A stretch of 51,970 bases of DNA from Patescibacteria group bacterium (GCA_041645165.1 JBAZQN010000001.1:1-51970); one strand, 5' to 3'. Positions 5,014-39,297 are shown, counted from the first letter of the stretch. Numbers and translations are program-made. The notes: generated by a model from the sequence alone, not told the origin.

Positions 5014-5029
5014 GTGCGAGGCATGTCTG

Positions 5030-5163
5030 TATAAAAAGACGCGGTTGTCCCGCCCTGCGAGCGGGACACCGCTCGGCTCTCGGGTTCGCTCCTCCGACGT
5101 GGCGTCGGAGACCGTGCCCGCTCACCCTCCGAGACGCTTTTTATTGCAGCCACTCCTCGCTTG
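5030..5163 (+). repeat. Structured direct repeat, family D, copy 1
   Basis: ATAAAAAGACGCGGTTGTCCCGCCCTGCGAGCGGGACACCGCTCGGCTCTCGGGTTCGCTC...GAGACGCTTTTTATTGCAGCCACTCCTCGCTTG. Nearly identical to 5607-5735 except for the central hairpin. Confidence 0.85.
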
Positions 5164-5302
5164 GGGGGATATAGGAAATCGGTTTCGTGACGGTCTGGAA
5201 AAGACATTACTTCGTATACTAAAAAGTAGGGGGAGAGAAGGTAGGTAACCATTTAGCAATTTAATGTAAAGGTCCATTGTAAAATAATTATTCTCATTAT
5301 GT

Positions 5303-5584
5303 ATGAATACCTTAAGTTATAAAGTTACCGGTTGGACCGTGTCAGTGTTTTCAGTGTTGAGCTATGCCTTATGTTTCCTCTGGGCGTATACGCTGGCGGG
5401 CGATTTGAGAGAAATGCATGTGAATTGGCTGCGGATGGCGTATTTGAAATTTGCCGGACTTGATGTGATGAGTTTTTTGTCAGGACTTGTGCAGACGTTT
5501 GTGTGGGCATGGATTGCGGTGATCGCGTTTGTCTGGTTGTGGAACAGGTTTTACCATAAGTTCGAGAAGACGGGGACAGCATAG
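5303..5584 (+). CDS. Small integral membrane protein (93 aa, about 3 TM)
   Basis: Hydrophobic segments VSVFSVLSYALCFLWAY, FLSGLVQTFVWAWIAVIAFVWLW. The gene is flanked by the two family D repeats. Confidence 0.55.
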   Translation: MNTLSYKVTGWTVSVFSVLSYALCFLWAYTLAGDLREMHVNWLRMAYLKFAGLDVMSFLSGLVQTFVWAWIAVIAFVWLWNRFYHKFEKTGTA

Positions 5585-5606
5585 GAGAGGCGCTCGGAGT
5601 GTTTGC

Positions 5607-5735
5607 ATAAAAAGACGCGGTTGTCCCGCCCTGCGAGCGGGACACCGCTCGGCTCTCGGGTTCGCTCTCCCGCTTCGCGGGATCCGTGCCCGCTCACCCT
5701 CCGAGACGCTTTTTATTGCACCCACTCCTCGCTTG
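5607..5735 (+). repeat. Structured direct repeat, family D, copy 2
   Basis: Same 5' and 3' blocks as 5030-5163. The central hairpin is TCCCGC-TTC-GCGGGA instead of CTCCGACG-TGG-CGTCGGAG. Confidence 0.85.
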
Positions 5736-5753
5736 AGGTTAAGAGTTGAAGCT

Positions 5754-5786
5754 GCGAGGGTGTTCACGAACGCACATCCTCGCTTG
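5754..5786 (+). repeat. Hairpin repeat, family E, copy 1
   Basis: GCGAGGGTGTTCACGAACGCACATCCTCGCTTG, identical to 5871-5903. Confidence 0.8.
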
Positions 5787-5870
5787 GGAAAATTAGGAAG
5801 ATCCATACCCGCGGAATCTCCGAGACACTTTCCTTCACAGGCAATCCTCACTTGGGGGGAGTAAAGAGTT

Positions 5871-6328: not shown

Positions 6329-6442
6329 ATAGTATTTTGCATTAATTAACGATTAGATTGTACTATAACGTGGTAAAATTGTCGAGGAAGGAATAGATAA
6401 TAGAAGATTGTAATTATAATAAATTTGTGATAGGCTCATAGC

Positions 6443-7864
6443 ATGAATAGAACTATTGTGAGTGAAACTACGGGTGCCATTGGCGCCACGGTGCTCCTGA
6501 AGGGATGGGTGCATGCGCGCCGGAATCTCGGAAAGATCGTATTTTTTGACGTGCGCGACCGGTCTGGCATCGTTCAGGCGGTGTGCGTGCCGAAAGAATT
6601 GGATCCCGCATCGGTGGACGCAGTGACCAAGATACGCCCGGAGTGGGTGGTGGAAATTGAAGGCGCGGTGCAGATGAGGCAGGAGAAGGACGTGAATCCG
6701 CTCATCCCCACCGGCAAGATAGAGGTCCTCGCAAAGCGCGTGGCGGTCCTCAATGAGGCGAAGACGCCACCGTTTGAAATCGACAAAGACACGAAAGGGA
6801 TTTCCGAAGAGTTGCGCCTGAAGTACCGCTACCTTGATTTGCGCAGCGACCGGATGCGGCGGAACATGCTCATGCGCTCCAAGATGATGCACTATGTGCG
6901 GAGTTACTTGCGCGAGAGGGGATTTACCGAAATCCATACGCCCATGCTTTCCAAATCAACGCCGGAAGGAGCGCGCGACTATCTCGTGCCTTCGCGCAAA
7001 TACCACGGCAAGTTTTTTGCGCTCCCGCAATCTCCCCAGCAATACAAGCAGATGCTCATGGTGGCGGGATTTGAGCGGTATTTCCAGATCGCGCCCTGTT
7101 TCCGCGACGAGGACGCGCGCGCGGACCGCAGTCCCGGAGAATTCTACCAAGTGGACATGGAGATGAGCTTCGTGACGCAGGACGAGATCCTTGCGCTCAC
7201 CGAGCACATGTTCACCGCGATGGTGAAAGAGCTATGGCCTGAAAAACATTTCATGCAAGAGCCGTGGCCGCGGCTGAAGTACCAGGAGGTGATGGTGAAG
7301 TATGGCACGGACAAGCCTGATTTGCGCCGGAATAAAGAGGATATGAGTGAGCTCGCATTCGCATGGGTGCTTGATTTCCCTCTCTTCATGCGGCAGAGCA
7401 AAGAAGACTTCTTCTTCGGCGCAGGCAAGGTATGGGCGCCGTCCCATCATATGTTCACGGCACCCAAGGAAGAGGATGTGCCGCTTCTTGATACTGATCC
7501 CGGGAAGGCGAGGTCTTACCAGCATGATTTGGTCTTGAATGGGATTGAAGTGGGAGGCGGCAGCGTGCGGATTCACAGCGCCGCGCTCCAGGAGAAAATA
7601 TTTGACCTCATCGGATTTACTGCGGAGGACAAGAAGAAATTCGAACATCTTTTGCGCGCGTTTGAGTTCGGGGTGCCGCCCCACGGCGGCATTGCGCCGG
7701 GGTTTGACCGTCTGCTTGCTATCCTGCAGGGAGAAAAATCAATCCGCGAGGTGATTGCGTTCCCCTTGACCGCCGATGCCCGCGATCCGCTCATGGATTC
7801 GCCGAGTGAAGTGACGAGCGAGCAGTTGGAAGAATTGGGGATTAAGGTGGTTGAGGAAGCTTGA
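6443..7864 (+). CDS. aspS: Aspartate--tRNA ligase, bacterial type but lacking the GAD insertion domain (473 aa)
   Basis: OB-fold N-terminus (LKGWVHARRNLGKIVFFDVRDRSG), LRLKYRYLDLR, and motif 2 FRDEDARADRSPGEFYQVDMEMSF. GTDKPDLR is followed almost directly by WVLDFPLF. Motif 3 is GGIAPGFDRL. Confidence 0.9.
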   Translation: MNRTIVSETTGAIGATVLLKGWVHARRNLGKIVFFDVRDRSGIVQAVCVPKELDPASVDAVTKIRPEWVVEIEGAVQMRQEKDVNPLIPTGKIEVLAKRVAVLNEAKTPPFEIDKDTKGISEELRLKYRYLDLRSDRMRRNMLMRSKMMHYVRSYLRERGFTEIHTPMLSKSTPEGARDYLVPSRKYHGKFFALPQSPQQYKQMLMVAGFERYFQIAPCFRDEDARADRSPGEFYQVDMEMSFVTQDEILALTEHMFTAMVKELWPEKHFMQEPWPRLKYQEVMVKYGTDKPDLRRNKEDMSELAFAWVLDFPLFMRQSKEDFFFGAGKVWAPSHHMFTAPKEEDVPLLDTDPGKARSYQHDLVLNGIEVGGGSVRIHSAALQEKIFDLIGFTAEDKKKFEHLLRAFEFGVPPHGGIAPGFDRLLAILQGEKSIREVIAFPLTADARDPLMDSPSEVTSEQLEELGIKVVEEA

Positions 7865-13933: not shown

Positions 13934-14009
13934 GCCGTTGTAGCTCAGTTGGTAGAGCAACTCCATGGTAAGGAGTAGGTCGTCGGTTCAATTCCGACCA
14001 ACGGCTCCA
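13934..14009 (+). tRNA. tRNA-Thr (anticodon GGT), CCA encoded
   Basis: Acceptor GCCGTTG/CAACGGC, anticodon stem ACTCC/GGAGT with loop ATGGTAA, and T arm GTCGG-TTCAATT-CCGAC. Confidence 0.9.
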
Positions 14010-14030
14010 GATTTTTTCAGAGCTGCAAAG

Positions 14031-14197
14031 GCAGCTCCACCGCTGGAGCGGGGCAGGCAGGCATGGTAAGTCCCGCCGCACAATATTTATTGTAAAAATA
14101 ATGAAGGCGGGATCCCGCCAAGGCGGGAGAAGTAGGTCCCCCGCACAATGCGGGGCAACGGCTCCAGATTTTTTCAGAGCTGCAAAGACAGCTCCAC
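14031..14197 (+). other. tRNA-Thr-derived mosaic, with a 42-bp direct repeat of the tRNA 3' end and trailer
   Basis: AGCTC[same insert]..CATGGTAAG[60-nt insert]AGTAGGTC[ccccgcacaatgcgggg replacing the T arm]CAACGGCTCCA. The stretch 13999-14040 is repeated at 14156-14197 with one mismatch. Confidence 0.65.
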
Positions 14198-15335: not shown

Positions 15336-15556
15336 CCCAGCAATACAACATCCAAGAGGGAGGCAAGACCTTATGCACATTTGAAGATAGATTGTAGGAG
15401 AGGCTTTATTAAGTAGAATGTTTTTTTCTTCGCCTCCCTCACGACTCGCCAAACGTTAAGAATAATGACAGAAAAAATTTATTCACTATGGTCGTATTAT
15501 TACATGATAATCATTCAGCAACAGCGCCGTTTGGCGTTGGATGTTGATATACTGGG
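15336..15556 (+). mobile_element. Structured 221-bp element, family H, copy 1, abutting the rpmG start codon
   Basis: Terminal inverted repeats are CCCAGCAATACAACATCCAA / TTGGATGTTGATATACTGGG. The internal stem is GAGGGAGGC/GCCTCCCTC. TATG lies on both flanks (15332-15335 and 15557-15560). A homologous copy lies at 37499-37721. Confidence 0.75.
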
Positions 15557-16226: not shown

Positions 16227-16297
16227 GGGGGGTTCGTATAACGGTAGTACAATGGTCTCCAAAACCATTAGCGAGGGTCCGACTCCTTCACCCCCTG
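16227..16297 (+). tRNA. tRNA-Trp (anticodon CCA)
   Basis: Anticodon stem ATGGT/ACCAT with loop CTCCAAA, and T arm GAGGG-TCCGACT-CCTTC. Acceptor GGGGGGT/ACCCCCT has a G-T pair at 1-72. The discriminator is G. Confidence 0.8.
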
Positions 16298-16315
16298 AAT
16301 TTACATAGCAATAAC

Positions 16316-16339
16316 CCAGAGGTAATCCCTCTGGTTTTT
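16316..16339 (+). terminator. Rho-independent terminator after tRNA-Trp
   Basis: CCAGAGG-TAATC-CCTCTGG-TTTTT. Confidence 0.75.
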
Positions 16340-16376
16340 GATTTATTTAAGTATTATTATGGTATAATTTATTTGT

Positions 16377-18497
16377 ATGCACAGACATGGTATCTTGTTT
16401 TCTAAACCGACTATTATTTCCTTTTTAGCAATTTTAAGCATTGCTGGTATCGCAGTTTATGTGATCCAAACAAAAGAGCAGGGCCAAGTTGCCGGCGTCT
16501 GTTCCGCAAAATCAGTAACTTCCACCAGCTTCATCAAAACTTTTCACTTGCTTGATTTAACTGACGGTTTTGACATTTCATTCACTAAAGATGGCGGATA
16601 TTTGCTGACCGGCGACATTCTTCCGGCCTCTGGCATGGGAGCGCCAAAACCTTATATTATCCAAACCGATACTAAGGGGAATCCACTATGGAGCAGGCAG
16701 TTTAGCAGTAAAAGCATGGCTCTTGGGCTGATGTCGTCCCGGCGGATCGGGCGTCTCGCTCTAGAGACGATTGACGGCAATATTGTCACGGCCATCGATG
16801 TACTGGATTTTGTTGATGAAAACGTGAAAGAACTCTATGGCGATATTTTGGTGACCAAAATTAGTAAAAAGGGAACGCAGCTCTGGTCATTGATGCTTGG
16901 CGATTATAGTATAGATCGTCCGCAAAAAATATGGGCTTTATCGGATGGCGGTGTGTTGCTCCTTGCCCGTTTCATGCAAACCGGTTATGGCACTGATGTA
17001 GGCGATACTGATGCAGTGCCCAAGTATAGCGTTTTAATAAAAATTGATAAAAACGGGAAAGTGCAATTTGCAAAAAAATTGAATTGGGAAGCAGAGGATG
17101 TGCAATATTTAGCTGATGGCAGTTTTATCGCCTTGGCCAATATTGTTGTTCCAAAAACTGAACAGCCAGAAAATATTTTGGGGCAGGAGTTGGTTCCGCA
17201 CGCCTTGCCGACCGTTATAAAACTGGACAGTGATTTTAAAGTGGCGTGGGCGAAGAGCCTTGAGATGATTCCGTCGGAGATAAATGCTCCCACCAGTTAT
17301 TCTGGCAGCAGTTTTACCATGGGAAAAACCGCTATCCGCATGCCGGGCGGTGACTTTAGGGCGGTTCAGCCTGTGCCCGACGGCGGTTTTATTGCGTTCG
17401 GTTTTGGCGATTTAAGTCTAATTTCGGGGCTGATGACGGGATCAGCCAATACTATCAATAGTTTTTCCGCGCGATCATTGATCGCGGTCAAGGTCGATAA
17501 GGTAGGGAATTACAAATGGGCAAAAAAATTAACTGTAAATATGACCTCTAGCCCATCAAGTAATGATTTTCAGGTGATAAAAACTTTGGACGATTATTTT
17601 GTGATTATGCAGGATGTGGTGCGCGAGAGCGCAAAGGTGCAAGCGGCTGATTTTAATTTATCGCCAGAGGCATTGGCCTCAAATATTGAATTGATTAAAA
17701 CTGATGTCGATTTTAATCCGATGTGGGTGAAAAAAATTAATGCGGAACGGGATTTGTCAGGCTATGGCATCGCGCCGACAGCCGATAAGGGAGTTGTGAT
17801 TGCCAGCAGTATGCTCACCACTAAACAGCATATAGTAATGATGAGTCTGGAACCATATAAGGAGGCGGCTTTGATAAAAGTTGATGTCAATGGCGAGGTG
17901 CGCGGATGTCCCGGAGTAACGGATTACCGCGGGGCAACGGTGGAAGACCAAAGCAGCTATTTGGTGATGCAAAGTATGCAGGTCGATGGGGCTGAAAATA
18001 TGACGTTGCCTATTAATAAAAAGGTAAAAGAAAAGGTTTTCCTCATAAAAAATACGGCGCGAGACATTTGTAAATATCAAAAAAGTAGCGTAGCGCCAAA
18101 TTGTTCCGTTTCCCTACCGCTGACGTCAGGTCAGACAGTCACGCCGCCCACGCCCAAAACCTGGGCGCTGATCGGCTATGGAAACACCAAAGAAGTCGCA
18201 GTAGACGGCGAGAAGAACCAGGCTGTTCATAAAGAATTACTGCCAATACTTAACCAAATTTTCAATAACCAGGTGAAATTAAAAGATAGCATGAAAAGCA
18301 TGTGGCTCACCTATGTGTTCCCACGTCAGGTGACGCGCTCGGACGTGGAAGTCGTGCAGAAAAAATATGAGGAACTGGGCTACAAGATTGACCAGTCAGA
18401 AGGAGGCGTGCTGTGGGTTTCCAAGATTGGACTGACATTGCATCTGATTTTCTCTATTCAAAATTCCATGGTTGGAAAATTAGAAGTGTTATTTTAA
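16377..18497 (+). CDS. Large anchored/secreted repeat protein, beta-propeller-like (706 aa)
   Basis: N-terminal TM segment. Then recurring units of about 50-60 aa with DGG[YVF]-type strands and G-x3-W-x-K/R-x-L motifs (NPLWSRQF, TQLWSLML, KVQFAKKL, KVAWAKSL, YKWAKKL, NPMWVKKI). Visibly AT-richer than the flanks. Confidence 0.65.
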   Translation: MHRHGILFSKPTIISFLAILSIAGIAVYVIQTKEQGQVAGVCSAKSVTSTSFIKTFHLLDLTDGFDISFTKDGGYLLTGDILPASGMGAPKPYIIQTDTKGNPLWSRQFSSKSMALGLMSSRRIGRLALETIDGNIVTAIDVLDFVDENVKELYGDILVTKISKKGTQLWSLMLGDYSIDRPQKIWALSDGGVLLLARFMQTGYGTDVGDTDAVPKYSVLIKIDKNGKVQFAKKLNWEAEDVQYLADGSFIALANIVVPKTEQPENILGQELVPHALPTVIKLDSDFKVAWAKSLEMIPSEINAPTSYSGSSFTMGKTAIRMPGGDFRAVQPVPDGGFIAFGFGDLSLISGLMTGSANTINSFSARSLIAVKVDKVGNYKWAKKLTVNMTSSPSSNDFQVIKTLDDYFVIMQDVVRESAKVQAADFNLSPEALASNIELIKTDVDFNPMWVKKINAERDLSGYGIAPTADKGVVIASSMLTTKQHIVMMSLEPYKEAALIKVDVNGEVRGCPGVTDYRGATVEDQSSYLVMQSMQVDGAENMTLPINKKVKEKVFLIKNTARDICKYQKSSVAPNCSVSLPLTSGQTVTPPTPKTWALIGYGNTKEVAVDGEKNQAVHKELLPILNQIFNNQVKLKDSMKSMWLTYVFPRQVTRSDVEVVQKKYEELGYKIDQSEGGVLWVSKIGLTLHLIFSIQNSMVGKLEVLF

Positions 18498-18572: not shown

Positions 18573-18643
18573 GAATTCCAGTTCTAACATCGTCCACGAT
18601 GCCCTGAATTTACATGGCAATAACCCAGAGGTAACGTCTCTGG
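18573..18643 (+). repeat. tRNA-Trp 3'-end-derived repeat R1 (att-like) with hairpin
   Basis: 18602-18634 matches 16293-16325 (tRNA-Trp 3' end plus trailer) at 32 of 33 positions. 18573-18606 is identical to 19159-19192. Confidence 0.8.
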
Positions 18644-18734
18644 TTATTAGTTGATAAAATGATATAATGAATATGTACATATTTAGGTCGATCCCAAACA
18701 TCAAATTGAATCTTAATTTATTAACTTAAATACT

Positions 18735-32488: not shown

Positions 32489-32525
32489 GTATATAGTGCA
32501 TTGCTATTCAGATTCCGATTTTCAA

Positions 32526-32644
32526 CGTCATTCCCGCCCCGTATCAAGGTACGGGGTAAACTCCGGCGGGAATCCAGAAACCAAAAGAAAACACCGATTT
32601 TTATTTATTTTTTGTCTGGATTCCTGATCTCGGTCAGGAATGAC
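32526..32644. mobile_element. MITE-like palindromic element, family A (second copy, opposite orientation)
   Basis: CGTCATTCCCGCCCCGTATCAAGGTACGGGG...GGAATCCAGAAACCAAAAG...TCTGGATTCCTGATCTCGGTCAGGAATGAC. It matches the reverse complement of 709-828. Confidence 0.75.
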
Positions 32645-36907: not shown

Positions 36908-37375
36908 TCATCCTTTGAGCTGAGTCGCGAGCTGGTGCGCCCACGCATCGATCGCGGCGTCTTGGGTTTGGGGAAATGAATCAATGCGGAGCGAAGGCAC
37001 AAGCAGGTTTCCCTCCGCTTCTTTCACGAAACGTTCAAGATGATCAGCCGCCGCGCAGAAGCGCATGTAGTTGGCGTCGCCAAGCCCGAAGACGGCGAAT
37101 TTTTTGTTATCAAATTTCCTGCCTTTTAGCGCGTCCACTAATTTCTGCATCTGGTCCTGAAGCTGGCCCTCTTCGAATTTGGCGGTGGCAGTATGCCTGT
37201 TCCACGTGCAGGAGCCGAGGACCACCGCATCGAATTCAGTGAAGATATCCGGCGCGGCGTCTCCTGCGGAGACCATATCAAGCGCCACGCCGTCCTGTCG
37301 CAGGGCGCTTGCGATGCGCTCGGCGACATAATAGGTATTGCCCGAGTTTGTGGCATAAAGCAATAGGATTTTCAT
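36908..37375 (-). CDS. Flavodoxin
   Basis: MKILLLYATNSGNTYYVAERI (phosphate-binding loop), VLGSCTWN, FGLGDANY. Confidence 0.85.
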   Translation of the reverse strand: MKILLLYATNSGNTYYVAERIASALRQDGVALDMVSAGDAAPDIFTEFDAVVLGSCTWNRHTATAKFEEGQLQDQMQKLVDALKGRKFDNKKFAVFGLGDANYMRFCAAADHLERFVKEAEGNLLVPSLRIDSFPQTQDAAIDAWAHQLATQLKG

Positions 37376-37460
37376 ATGATGATAGTTTTAGTCTTGCACG
37401 TGCCATCATTATAACGTTTCTGAAGAGGCTGGACAATTAGCTGCGCAGGGTATTATTTCG

Positions 37461-37489
37461 TTGTGAGAGCGTGTTATGAGTGCTATAAT
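37461..37489 (+). promoter_or_regulatory. Sigma-70-type promoter: TTGTGA, 17-nt spacer containing an extended-10 TG, then TATAAT
   Basis: The -35 is at 37461-37466 and the -10 at 37484-37489. The predicted start site falls on or next to the A of the ATG at 37496, the left flank of the family H element. Confidence 0.5.
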
Positions 37490-37498
37490 TGCACTATG

Positions 37499-37721
37499 CC
37501 CCGCAATACAACATCCAAGAGGGAGGCGGGAACTTAAGAGTGGAGAATGGATGAACTTGAGGGAGTCTGGGCGTGCGCATTAAGAGATAGTTTCATTGCC
37601 TCCCTCATTATATCGCCACACTCGCTTTTAATCATATTTTAGACTATGCTACTATAGTCGTTTTATTCATCAAAACTATCTCACGCCATTTATGTGTGGC
37701 GTTGGATGTTGTTATACGGGG
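37499..37721 (+). mobile_element. Structured 223-bp element, family H, copy 2, abutting the start codon of a tiny basic ORF
   Basis: Terminal inverted repeats are CCCCGCAATACAACATCCAA / TTGGATGTTGTTATACGGGG. The internal stem is GAGGGAGGC/GCCTCCCTC. TATG lies on both flanks (37495-37498 and 37722-37725). Confidence 0.75.
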
Positions 37722-37722
37722 T

Positions 37723-37803
37723 ATGAACAAGAAGCGAAAAATAGCGCAAAAGAAACACCGCAAGAAGTCAGGGAAGAAAATTGGTGCGGTGAGGAATAGA
37801 TAA
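37723..37803 (+). CDS. 26-aa Lys/Arg-rich peptide, resembling very small ribosomal proteins (bS22/bL37 style)
   Basis: MNKKRKIAQKKHRKKSGKKIGAVRNR is below the ORF-track cutoff. Its position relative to the family H element is the same as for rpmG. Confidence 0.45.
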   Translation: MNKKRKIAQKKHRKKSGKKIGAVRNR

Positions 37804-37809
37804 TGCGGT

Positions 37810-39297
37810 ATGCGGAATAGCGCCTTGATGCGCATGAATGCACTTCTGCGCCGTTTCAGGGAGTATGCCGTGCCCGCGGGGCTTGTGTGTGCCACTGCGG
37901 TTTTTTTTAGTTGGCAGCTGGGCGCGGTGCCGCTCGTTGATTACGACGAGGCGACGTACGCGCAGGTTGCCATGGAAACGCGGGAGAACGGCGACCTTGC
38001 GCATCTAGTACGTTTGGGGCGTCCGTGGCTTGATAAGCCTCCGCTCTATTTCTGGCTTGCCATGGGGTCGGTGCGCTTGTTTGGCGAACAGGAATGGTCG
38101 TTTCGCATCCCCTCGGTGCTTGCGGCAATGGCGACGGTGTGGTGCGTGTATGCGCTCATGGCGAGACTTACCCGAATGCGCGCGGTGGCCGCGGCAGCAA
38201 GCGGTATCCTCATGGCGTCGCCCATTTACTTTATGTACGCGCGTGAAGCGCGCCTTGATGCGGGAGTAACGCTTGCGCTCGTGGCGGCGCTGTACTTTAC
38301 CGTGAGAGGATGGAAGAATCCTGTTTTTTTATTGGGGATTTTGCCTGCCCTTGCGATGGGATTTTACATGAAAAGTTTTGTGGTATTTCTTGCCTTGCCG
38401 GTGCTTCTTGTGTACAGCGCGGCGTACCATCATTGGGAGTGGATTAAATCAAAGTATTTATGGTTTGGGGGATTGGCGGCCGCGGCGCTGCTGTTTCCTT
38501 GGCATTATCTTCAATATATAAAGTTCGGGCATGAATTCATCCAGACCTATTTTATTTTTCAGGTCCTTGCCCGGTCAGTGACGACCCTGACAGGCACCAG
38601 CCATATCTTAAGTTACGCGGCAAACCTCTGGATATACCATCAGCCTTGGACCGCAGGGCTTCTCGTGGCTATGGGAGCGCTAATCTGCGTTCGTGCATTG
38701 AGCCGATCTCACAGGAAAATCAGTCCGCATGTGTTAGCGCCATTTCTTTCTGCCGTTATCATCGTCGGCTTATTTACCCTCATGCGCACTCATTTGTCGT
38801 CCTATCTTGTGCCGTCGTTTCCTTTTTTGGCGATGGCAGGAGCCATGTGCGCCTGGGAGGTTAGCGCCACGTTGATTCGACGCCGATTTGCCTACGTAGG
38901 TATTATGATAATCCTGCTTGCGTTCGGTTTTTTTGAAACATGGCAATTGAGGTATAACCTGGTTTTCCCCTATCACTTTGAAGAACGCGCCGCAGGCATG
39001 CGCATACAACAGGACAACCGAGGCCAAGCGCCGGTCTATATCGTCAATTGGCCGTACCATGAGACTATCCGCTATTACGGGAGCACCGATATAGTGCCGC
39101 TCAATTTGCAGGATTCAGGCGGCCGGCACTTGAAAGCCCCTTTTTATTTTTTGGTAAATACTCAAGCGGCGTCATTTCTCAACGACACCGCAGGGAATCC
39201 GCCTACGGCATATCCGGGCGTGCAAGAGCTTTATCGGGGCGAGTACCTGTGGCTGTTGAAATCAACCATCGATTTTACCCTGCCGACTTTTCAATAA
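37810..39297 (+). CDS. ArnT/PMT-like glycosyltransferase (GT39/GT83 family, polytopic membrane)
   Basis: VPLVDYDEATYAQVAMETRENGD...LDKPPLYFWLAMGSVRLFG is the typical first-loop DE motif region. About 11-12 TM segments follow. Confidence 0.8.
   Translation: MRNSALMRMNALLRRFREYAVPAGLVCATAVFFSWQLGAVPLVDYDEATYAQVAMETRENGDLAHLVRLGRPWLDKPPLYFWLAMGSVRLFGEQEWSFRIPSVLAAMATVWCVYALMARLTRMRAVAAAASGILMASPIYFMYAREARLDAGVTLALVAALYFTVRGWKNPVFLLGILPALAMGFYMKSFVVFLALPVLLVYSAAYHHWEWIKSKYLWFGGLAAAALLFPWHYLQYIKFGHEFIQTYFIFQVLARSVTTLTGTSHILSYAANLWIYHQPWTAGLLVAMGALICVRALSRSHRKISPHVLAPFLSAVIIVGLFTLMRTHLSSYLVPSFPFLAMAGAMCAWEVSATLIRRRFAYVGIMIILLAFGFFETWQLRYNLVFPYHFEERAAGMRIQQDNRGQAPVYIVNWPYHETIRYYGSTDIVPLNLQDSGGRHLKAPFYFLVNTQAASFLNDTAGNPPTAYPGVQELYRGEYLWLLKSTIDFTLPTFQ

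Follow-up and report, generated by a model that had tools for sequence, protein, structure and literature searches.

Leaderless mRNAs coding for unannotated small proteins have been mapped in mycobacteria (Shell et al. 2015, PMC4633059). Among bacterial MITEs, which are miniature transposable elements with inverted repeats, the Correia elements of Neisseria are co-transcribed, are bound or cleaved by RNase III and affect neighbouring genes (PMC2649163). Annotation readily overlooks ribosomal proteins of the bS22 type, which are probably present in further bacteria (PMC10618245). We compare with these systems a locus at positions 37461-37803 of a DNA stretch of 51,970 nucleotides from a Patescibacteria group bacterium (GCA_041645165.1, JBAZQN010000001.1:1-51970), hereafter called the window. 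Analysis of this locus suggests that it is probably a small transcription unit, and that its first cistron is a genuine gene of 26 codons for a polybasic peptide, missing from the annotation and displaced in this strain by a MITE of a family which we call family H.

The locus resembles the mycobacterial leaderless genes in that a -10 box lies about 7 nt upstream of an AUG or GUG serving both as transcription start and as start codon, with no Shine-Dalgarno (SD) sequence, and in that a very short open reading frame (ORF) missed by annotation belongs to an architecture recurrent within one genome. It differs from them in that the leaderless start is predicted here from comparative sequence, in that the organism belongs to an uncultured, Uhrbacteria-like lineage of Patescibacteria, and in that the gene has been split from its promoter by a mobile element. 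Family H shares with bacterial MITEs such as the Correia elements (PMC2649163; review PMC10969869) a short, non-coding sequence with terminal inverted repeats and a target duplication, many copies and strain polymorphism, and shares with the Correia elements a long fold in the mRNA able to alter the expression of an adjacent gene. However, it folds as a three-way junction, whereas the Correia element is a simple hairpin, and it duplicates TATG, repeatedly exactly on start codons and in one orientation. Correia elements duplicate TA and are not known to be tied to start codons. The whole is a new configuration of known kinds, namely a gene of predicted leaderless origin which now lies 227 nt further downstream, behind a structured element with a decoy start codon at the 5' end.

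For comparison we used two assemblies, L012 (GCA_040960375.1) and L013 (GCA_040960315.1), both reached through the 90%-identity clusters of the glycosyltransferase of the window and of its closest relative P0002, and metagenome contigs from the run holding the window (X1), from one study (X2 and X4) and from another (X7 and X9). The features on which the argument turns are the following.

37461-37466, + strand: -35 hexamer TTGTGA, from the consensus scan, unchanged in L012 and L013
37481-37489, + strand: extended -10 box TGcTATAAT (TG at 37481-82, TATAAT at 37484-89), from the consensus scan and the relatives
37490-37495, + strand: discriminator tgcact, 6 nt between the -10 box and the start codon, constant in length and variable in sequence
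37495-37498, + strand: left TATG of the 4-bp target duplication; its ATG (37496-98) was the start codon before the insertion and is where transcription is predicted to begin
37499-37721, + strand: family-H non-coding mobile element (MITE), copy 2, 223 bp, with terminal inverted repeats at 37499-37518 and 37702-37721, absent from the relatives
37722-37725, + strand: right TATG of the target duplication; its ATG (37723-25) is the present start codon of the micro-gene
37723-37803, + strand: 26-codon polybasic-peptide gene MNKKRKIAQKKHRKKSGKKIGAVRNR, with K or R at 13 of 26 residues and four synonymous substitutions in relatives

Both L012 and L013 are free of the element and have a single ATG at the site. 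In these assemblies the stop of a 151-codon gene is followed by a terminator-like hairpin (AAACCCTGC-TCCTATG-GCAGGGTTTTA), TTGTGA, 17 nt, TATAAT, AATGCA and ATGAACAAGAAG, the ORF starting directly after AATGCA as ATGAACAAG. The X2 and X4 contigs have the same type of junction as L012, skipping 37490-37722 with AATGCA between. The X7 (TGCTATAAT-GACCAC-ATG) and X9 (TGGTATAAT-AACCGC-ATG) contigs are also element-free, and the -10 form TGCTATAAT is common to L012, L013 and X7. Four lineages thus show an extended -10 box, exactly 6 variable bases and then the ATG of the 26-codon ORF. Upstream of this unit lies an ABC-transporter operon in L012 and L013 but a divergent flavodoxin gene in the window, and the promoter therefore travels with the ORF. 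An empty-site contig was not seen in X1 among the Logan contigs, which drop rare variants. A 52-codon frame of L012, extended to a TTG, was rejected because it would run across the terminator and the promoter.

The -35 hexamer, the TG and the -10 hexamer are the same in the window and L012. The bases around them are less constant, with changes at 4 of the 17 positions of the spacer and at most of the six positions after the -10 hexamer. These six bases appear as four different sequences (tgcact, AATGCA, GACCAC and AACCGC), each 6 nt long; such constancy of length would follow from selection on the spacing between the -10 box and the ATG. Between the window (37490-37495) and L012 (3883-3888), TGCACT and AATGCA align as a 2-nt deletion plus a 2-nt insertion, length being kept. 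The spacer from TTGTGA to TATAAT is 17 nt long and ends with the TG of the extended -10 box. The usual start position of a sigma-70-type promoter is the 7th base after the -10 hexamer, which is here the A of the ATG at 37496. In the window, L012, L013, X7 and X9 the -10 box ends 6-7 nt before this A, which leaves no room for a 5' untranslated region or an SD sequence, and the promoter elements and their spacing are kept while the intervening bases drift, as would be expected of a leaderless gene. Because the -10 box sits exactly 6 nt before the ATG, transcription of the element-free allele should begin with the first base of the start codon, and the mRNA would then be leaderless, as judged from this geometry and its conservation. 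The promoter has 10 of 12 consensus matches plus the TG. By itself this match is weak evidence, as the consensus scan found 4 promoter-like sites in the 600-nt region against 1.4 +/- 1.3 in shuffled sequences, and the weight lies on the conservation in relatives. A preliminary description of the window, made from its sequence, had proposed this promoter (TTGTGA, a 17-nt spacer and TG-n-TATAAT at 37461-37489, with the ATG at 37496) and all of its coordinates hold. It had further held that, but for the 223-bp element, this ATG would read into the 26-codon ORF, as the empty sites now show, and had asked whether orthologues lie directly behind a -10 box with no element, which is the case in L012, L013, X2/X4, X7 and X9. 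A divergent promoter-like site (TTGTCC-17-TATAAT, 37408-37436, - strand) lies ahead of the flavodoxin gene (36908-37375, - strand), and the flavodoxin region has no match at 80% likeness or above in the runs holding the relatives.

An SD-like tetramer at the right distance precedes 5 of the 35 long ORFs of the window, and starts 6-9 nt past a TATAAT-type box are found at 497, 16377 (a 706-codon ORF), 19348, 40871 (typA) and 43012. This suggests that leaderless or near-leaderless mRNAs are widespread in this Patescibacteria genome. Since SD motifs are few and box-adjacent starts several, leaderless and SD-independent starts look normal here, which makes the promoter described above more credible. 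It also follows from SD-independent initiation that an AUG inside a transcript would be usable with no SD sequence.

Comparison of the 26-codon ORF among the relatives reveals four substitutions, all of them synonymous and in third position: 37743 A>T (Ile7, in L012 and L013), 37755 A>G (Lys11, in X6 and X7), 37785 T>C (Gly21, in X7) and 37800 A>G (Arg26, in L006). All four are non-synonymous in both other frames. Of the substitutions possible in the ORF 20% (0.204) are synonymous, or 32% if transitions are considered, so that the chance of four synonymous changes out of four is 0.204^4, about 0.002. Compared with L012, the ORF has a single base change in 81 and no change of amino acid, whereas the downstream glycosyltransferase gene differs at 178 of 1470 bases (12%; pS 0.32, pN 0.059) and in 11% of its residues; had the ORF changed at the rates of the latter gene, it should show some 3.5 non-synonymous and 4.9 synonymous differences. 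L006, L012 and L013 all retain the TAA stop. Because all four substitutions are synonymous and no residue has changed against 11% in the glycosyltransferase, we conclude, from a small sample and a shallow clade, that the 26-residue peptide sequence appears to be under strong purifying selection within this clade. The preliminary description had made conservation of the frame in relatives a test of its reading, and the frame is conserved there, with synonymous changes only.

The gene downstream of the ORF is the next feature to be considered.

37810-39297, + strand: GT39/PMT_2 glycosyltransferase, whose true start may be the ATG at 37828

It is probably carried on the same mRNA as the ORF. It starts 6-24 nt past the stop of the ORF with no SD sequence, and the linkage of the two is kept in all close relatives. 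Further away, among the contigs fetched for GT39 homologues at 38-43% identity, no small ORF stands upstream; GT2 genes, Nramp genes or an uncharacterised 104-residue ORF are found there instead. In L006 the 22 bases past the stop of the ORF differ at 7 positions, including a 1-nt indel which puts the next ATG out of frame. As the indel interrupts the continuity of frame between the two genes, the idea that the ORF is a cut-off N-terminus of GT39, or is joined to it by stop-codon read-through, was rejected; the normal-length N-termini of the GT39 homologues speak against it as well. The stretch 37723-37852, which comprises the ORF, a spacer of 24 nt and the opening ~25 nt of GT39, has a single difference from L012, the rest of GT39 differing by 12%, and the spacer is not conserved in L006; this near-identity may reflect RNA-level constraint or translational coupling.

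It might be argued from this arrangement that the 81-nt sequence is kept mainly as a translated leader (an upstream ORF) or as an RNA element controlling GT39, and not for a free-standing peptide. The ORF always lies directly upstream of GT39 in the relatives having it, GT39 starts shortly after its stop with no SD sequence of its own, synonymous sites are more conserved in the ORF than in GT39, and the minimum free energy fold pairs the ORF sequence with the start region of GT39. However, all four changes fall in third positions and keep the amino acid, which an upstream ORF serving for coupling alone would not need, as it would require no invariant sequence of 26 residues. The change 37785 T>C, by inspection, breaks a predicted local A-U pair with no compensation, and the homologues at 38-43% identity manage with no such leader. 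We therefore regard a purely regulatory role as rather unlikely, and prefer a gene conserved for its peptide. The local hairpin 37756-62/37785-91 was likewise rejected as a conserved feature, since it is this pairing that the uncompensated 37785 T>C breaks.

As to the identity of the peptide, Pfam and NCBIfam profiles, including AURKAIP1/COX24 (PF08213), gave no match at E <= 1, a word-indexed protein search with a 45-aa in-frame extension gave none, and tblastn of the peptide against the DNA collected for this analysis returned noise only. As far as the searched libraries show, the 26-codon gene thus appears to be new. Its likeness to bS22, mS38 and eL41 lies in size (24-33 residues in these proteins), in a Lys/Arg content of 50-60%, in being often unannotated and in strong conservation within a lineage (PMC10618245), and its KKRK...KKHRKK pattern resembles KKRRKR..KKKHRK of the Msm bS22. 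In contrast to bS22, its C-terminal third (SGKKIGAVRNR) is less basic and its gene adjoins a glycosyltransferase gene and not a ribosomal protein gene. The bS22 references (Msm, Fjo and Bbu) were taken from the supplement of PMC10618245, the Msm chain being confirmed in the PDB. BLASTP of the peptide against bS22 gave no alignment, and Smith-Waterman shuffle z-scores were -0.26 (Bbu), -0.91 (Fjo) and +1.46 (Msm); this test is powerless for the family, because with genuine bS22 proteins of different phyla (Bbu or Fjo against Msm) z is likewise near 0. Among 177,635 PDB sequences the only match was mS161 (9fi8 chain HN), a mitoribosomal protein of equal length (26 residues) and with the same MNKK start, which at E = 0.34 is not significant and is mentioned as a curiosity only. 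No bS22 chain was among the PDB matches at E <= 10, nor any bL37 chain, this search having low power for polybasic peptides of 24-26 residues. The resemblance to bS22/bL37 proposed earlier therefore stands as one of composition but not as homology, no profile, PDB or exhaustive-search link having been found. Size, charge and strong constraint would fit an RNA- or ribosome-binding micro-protein.

Copy 2 of family H is bounded by terminal inverted repeats of 20 nt (CCCCGCAATACAACATCCAA and TTGGATGTTGTTATACGGGG) with TATG on both flanks. Inverted repeats and target duplication, dispersed copies with no transposase-sized ORF and an exact empty site in L012, L013, X2/X4, X7 and X9 identify it as a MITE. 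This 223-bp MITE has inserted recently at a TATG holding the start codon, duplicating 4 bp; the insertion is young because several close relatives retain the empty site. Its internal helices and the second copy in the window are located as follows.

37519-27 with 37598-606, + strand: helix P2 of copy 2, from the fold
37614-21 with 37694-701, + strand: helix P3 of copy 2, from the fold
15336-15556, + strand: family-H copy 1, TATG-flanked, on the start codon of rpmG (L33)

Pattern scans of public collections revealed 3 further distinct copies, bringing the total to five. One (L003) is TATG-flanked and lies at the start of a membrane-protein ORF. The second (L001, the same locus as L004) is CAAG-flanked and intergenic on a Candidatus Uhrbacteria contig, and the third (L005, 3068-3301, - strand) has an imperfect duplication, with CATG at its left end, TATA at its right end and an open frame beyond the latter. 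Scans with the 20-mer gave few loci, and one of them (L002, an Anaerolineae contig) was rejected as a chance match. The three TATG-duplicating copies (1, 2 and L003) are those that occupy a start codon, all in one fixed orientation. Elements are 221-230 bp long and their longest internal ORF has about 35 codons. All five copies share a three-way-junction fold of three helices, a closing one formed by the inverted repeats and two others, GAGGGAGGC/GCCUCCCUC and CGCCAMAC/GUKUGGCG; fold z-scores are -4.8 and -4.6, and 4 base pairs covary in the five-copy alignment, while the loops are unrelated in sequence. Among Rfam covariance models only tRNAs reach the gathering score in the window, the best match in 37400-37900 being snoZ188 (17 bits, E = 0.82). 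A group I intron was rejected by inspection, as the U/terminal-G splice-site rule is unsatisfiable under any placement of TATG and no Rfam match exists.

In X1 the summed contig depth at the element ends is 890-1180 against 22.4 for the single-copy flank, a ratio of ~40-50x which implies dozens of copies in the source sample, and at least 7 separate contigs at 16-24x carry a family-H right end. In every single-read case, the right flanks recovered as loose ends have no stop in the ATG frame over the 10 codons displayed. Many family-H right flanks open with ATG(A)CC. This resembles the left end of the element itself and hints at a target preference longer than TATG. In L005 and in a copy on an X7 contig the right end is TATA and not TATG, followed by CCC and an open frame, and L005 still has its left-hand ATG. 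Either decay of the downstream start codon or a role of the upstream ATG for those genes may account for this.

The insertion raises the question of how the 26-codon ORF is expressed, and the answer involves a further frame.

37496-37537, + strand: 13-codon ORF MPRNTTSKREAGT, made by the insertion from the host ATG and the left end of the element and dictated by the conserved element end

That the 5'-terminal AUG opens this frame, and that its product comes near the copy 1 peptide, had been pointed out earlier; 10 of 11 residues do match MPSNTTSKREA of copy 1, but simply because the stretch is the conserved left end of the element. The start of the 26-codon ORF has moved 227 nt along the transcript, to the foot of the closing helix on its 3' side, and in the equilibrium fold of a transcript from 37496 this helix pairs the 5' AUG with a UAU overlapping the downstream AUG. 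The A-rich codons past the AUG at 37723 are predicted to be largely open (0.64). In the route that we propose, the host promoter would read through the element, and the 5'-terminal AUG of the transcript would open the 13-codon ORF. Ribosomes loading co-transcriptionally on this AUG would translate the mini-ORF and thus occupy the left arm of the closing helix, and the AUG at 37723, with the A-rich unstructured codons behind it, would be freed for SD-independent internal initiation, on which most genes of a genome so poor in SD sequences must depend. Read-through with such a mini-ORF relay appears to us the most likely expression route, held tentatively and at a little short of an even chance. 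A bolder extension, speculative and improbable as it stands, would make the peptide a ribosome-bound micro-protein that has gone unrecognised in Patescibacteria, functionally analogous to bS22/eL41 and highly expressed from a leaderless mRNA, family H being tolerated on its start codon and on others because ribosomes on the mini-ORF unmask the host AUG.

Several observations weigh against a real and expressed 26-codon gene at this locus. In the predicted fold the 5' AUG is unpaired with a probability of only 0.07, and in the AUG at 37723 the A and the U have values of 0.04 and 0.16, so that expression of the ORF in this strain may be low. Conservation is demonstrable only in one shallow clade (GT39 at least 88% identical); beyond it the nearest GT39 homologues share 38-43% identity and are preceded by other genes. 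Synonymous sites within the ORF are unusually quiet, with 1 change against L012 where ~5 are expected, and this leaves room for an RNA-level function of the sequence. No RNA run containing the locus was found. An exhaustive phmmer search of 1.84 billion representative proteins with the 35-aa GTG-extended frame gave 0 matches, which says little because 26-codon orthologues fall below the limits of gene callers.

The predicted pairing also bears on the suggestion that the insertion has largely silenced the micro-gene, whose ORF would be intact only since the insertion is recent, the strain tolerating its loss or reduction. Both AUGs are paired in the closing helix at equilibrium, the 227 nt in front remove the only ribosome-recruiting feature of a leaderless gene, its 5'-terminal AUG, several close relatives are still element-free, and the consensus scan predicts no promoter inside copy 2. 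However, family H also sits on the start codons of rpmG (copy 1) and of the membrane-protein gene (L003), whose ORFs are intact, and start-codon insertions therefore seem generally compatible with expression. Moreover, the genome is not SD-reliant, and internal initiation at an AUG followed by A-rich sequence would be a normal mode in it. We consider silencing an unlikely outcome, yet one to be taken seriously beside the relay.

The closing helix suggests another route, in which the element RNA is processed, for example by an RNase III cut of the ~24-bp helix, leaving a leaderless or nearly leaderless fragment that begins at, or a few nt before, the AUG at 37723. A long terminal helix closes the three-way junction, with the z-scores and the 4 covarying pairs given above; the Correia elements offer a precedent (PMC2649163), and RNase III is among the ribonucleases discussed for Patescibacteria (PMC12641178). 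The helix is, however, interrupted by internal loops, and leaderless initiation on a processed 5'-monophosphate end is not known in this phylum, so that processing seems to us improbable as compared with read-through and relay.

It is also conceivable that an outward promoter in the element, either the right-terminal TGnTATAC(T/G) box or a box in the P3 loop, transcribes the ORF. The right-terminal boxes are as they had been described earlier (TG-n-TATACT in copy 1 and TATACG in copy 2), reading TGaTATACT in copy 1, L001 and L003 and TGtTATACG in copy 2. The P3 loop of copy 1 holds two weak promoter-like sites, and the gene at 497 of the window starts 6 nt past a TGnTATACT, so such boxes may be used in this genome. 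Against this, only 4 nt (GGGT) separate the hexamer from the A of the ATG; a transcription start 7 nt after the hexamer would hit the G of the ATG, and the start codon would therefore be lost. In copy 2 the hexamer ends in G at the critical last position, the consensus scan finds no + strand promoter inside this copy, and the -10-like box of the P3 loop is present in 2 of 5 copies only. The candidate promoter at the right terminus, put forward in the preliminary description, is thus unlikely on account of the 4-nt distance, and we give an element-internal origin of the transcript, from either box, very little credence beside transcription from the host promoter.

With this locus an unannotated micro-gene under strong constraint is added to a phylum whose small proteins are hardly known at all, and leaderless, SD-free initiation emerges as a probably recurrent architecture in this genome. 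It also offers a natural experiment, one gene with two natural alleles, the start being 5'-terminal in one and placed behind a 227-nt structured element with a decoy start in the other, and this pair bears on how ribosomes which do not use SD sequences find start codons. Because family H lands on TATG start codons, its copies can mark true starts, including those of ORFs too short for gene finders.

Other features lie further from the locus. In L012 a gene for a 137-residue Y1 transposase (IS200/IS605-type, PF01797) occupies 6437-6850, downstream of greA, where the window has a different gene on the opposite strand. Repeats other than family H are also present in the window. A 70-nt inverted repeat (764-833 and 32522-32591) is 87% complementary, with its arms 31.7 kb apart, and belongs to another repeat family. 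Within 5024-5857, direct repeats of 55-73 nt (families D1 and D2) occur two to three times at a spacing of ~575 nt and contain a GC-rich hairpin. At 13971-14040 and 14128-14197 (D3) the 3' part of a tRNA is duplicated together with downstream sequence, and a 54-nt hairpin-bearing repeat (D4, 16293-16346 and 18602-18655) brackets the 706-codon gene at 16377-18497.

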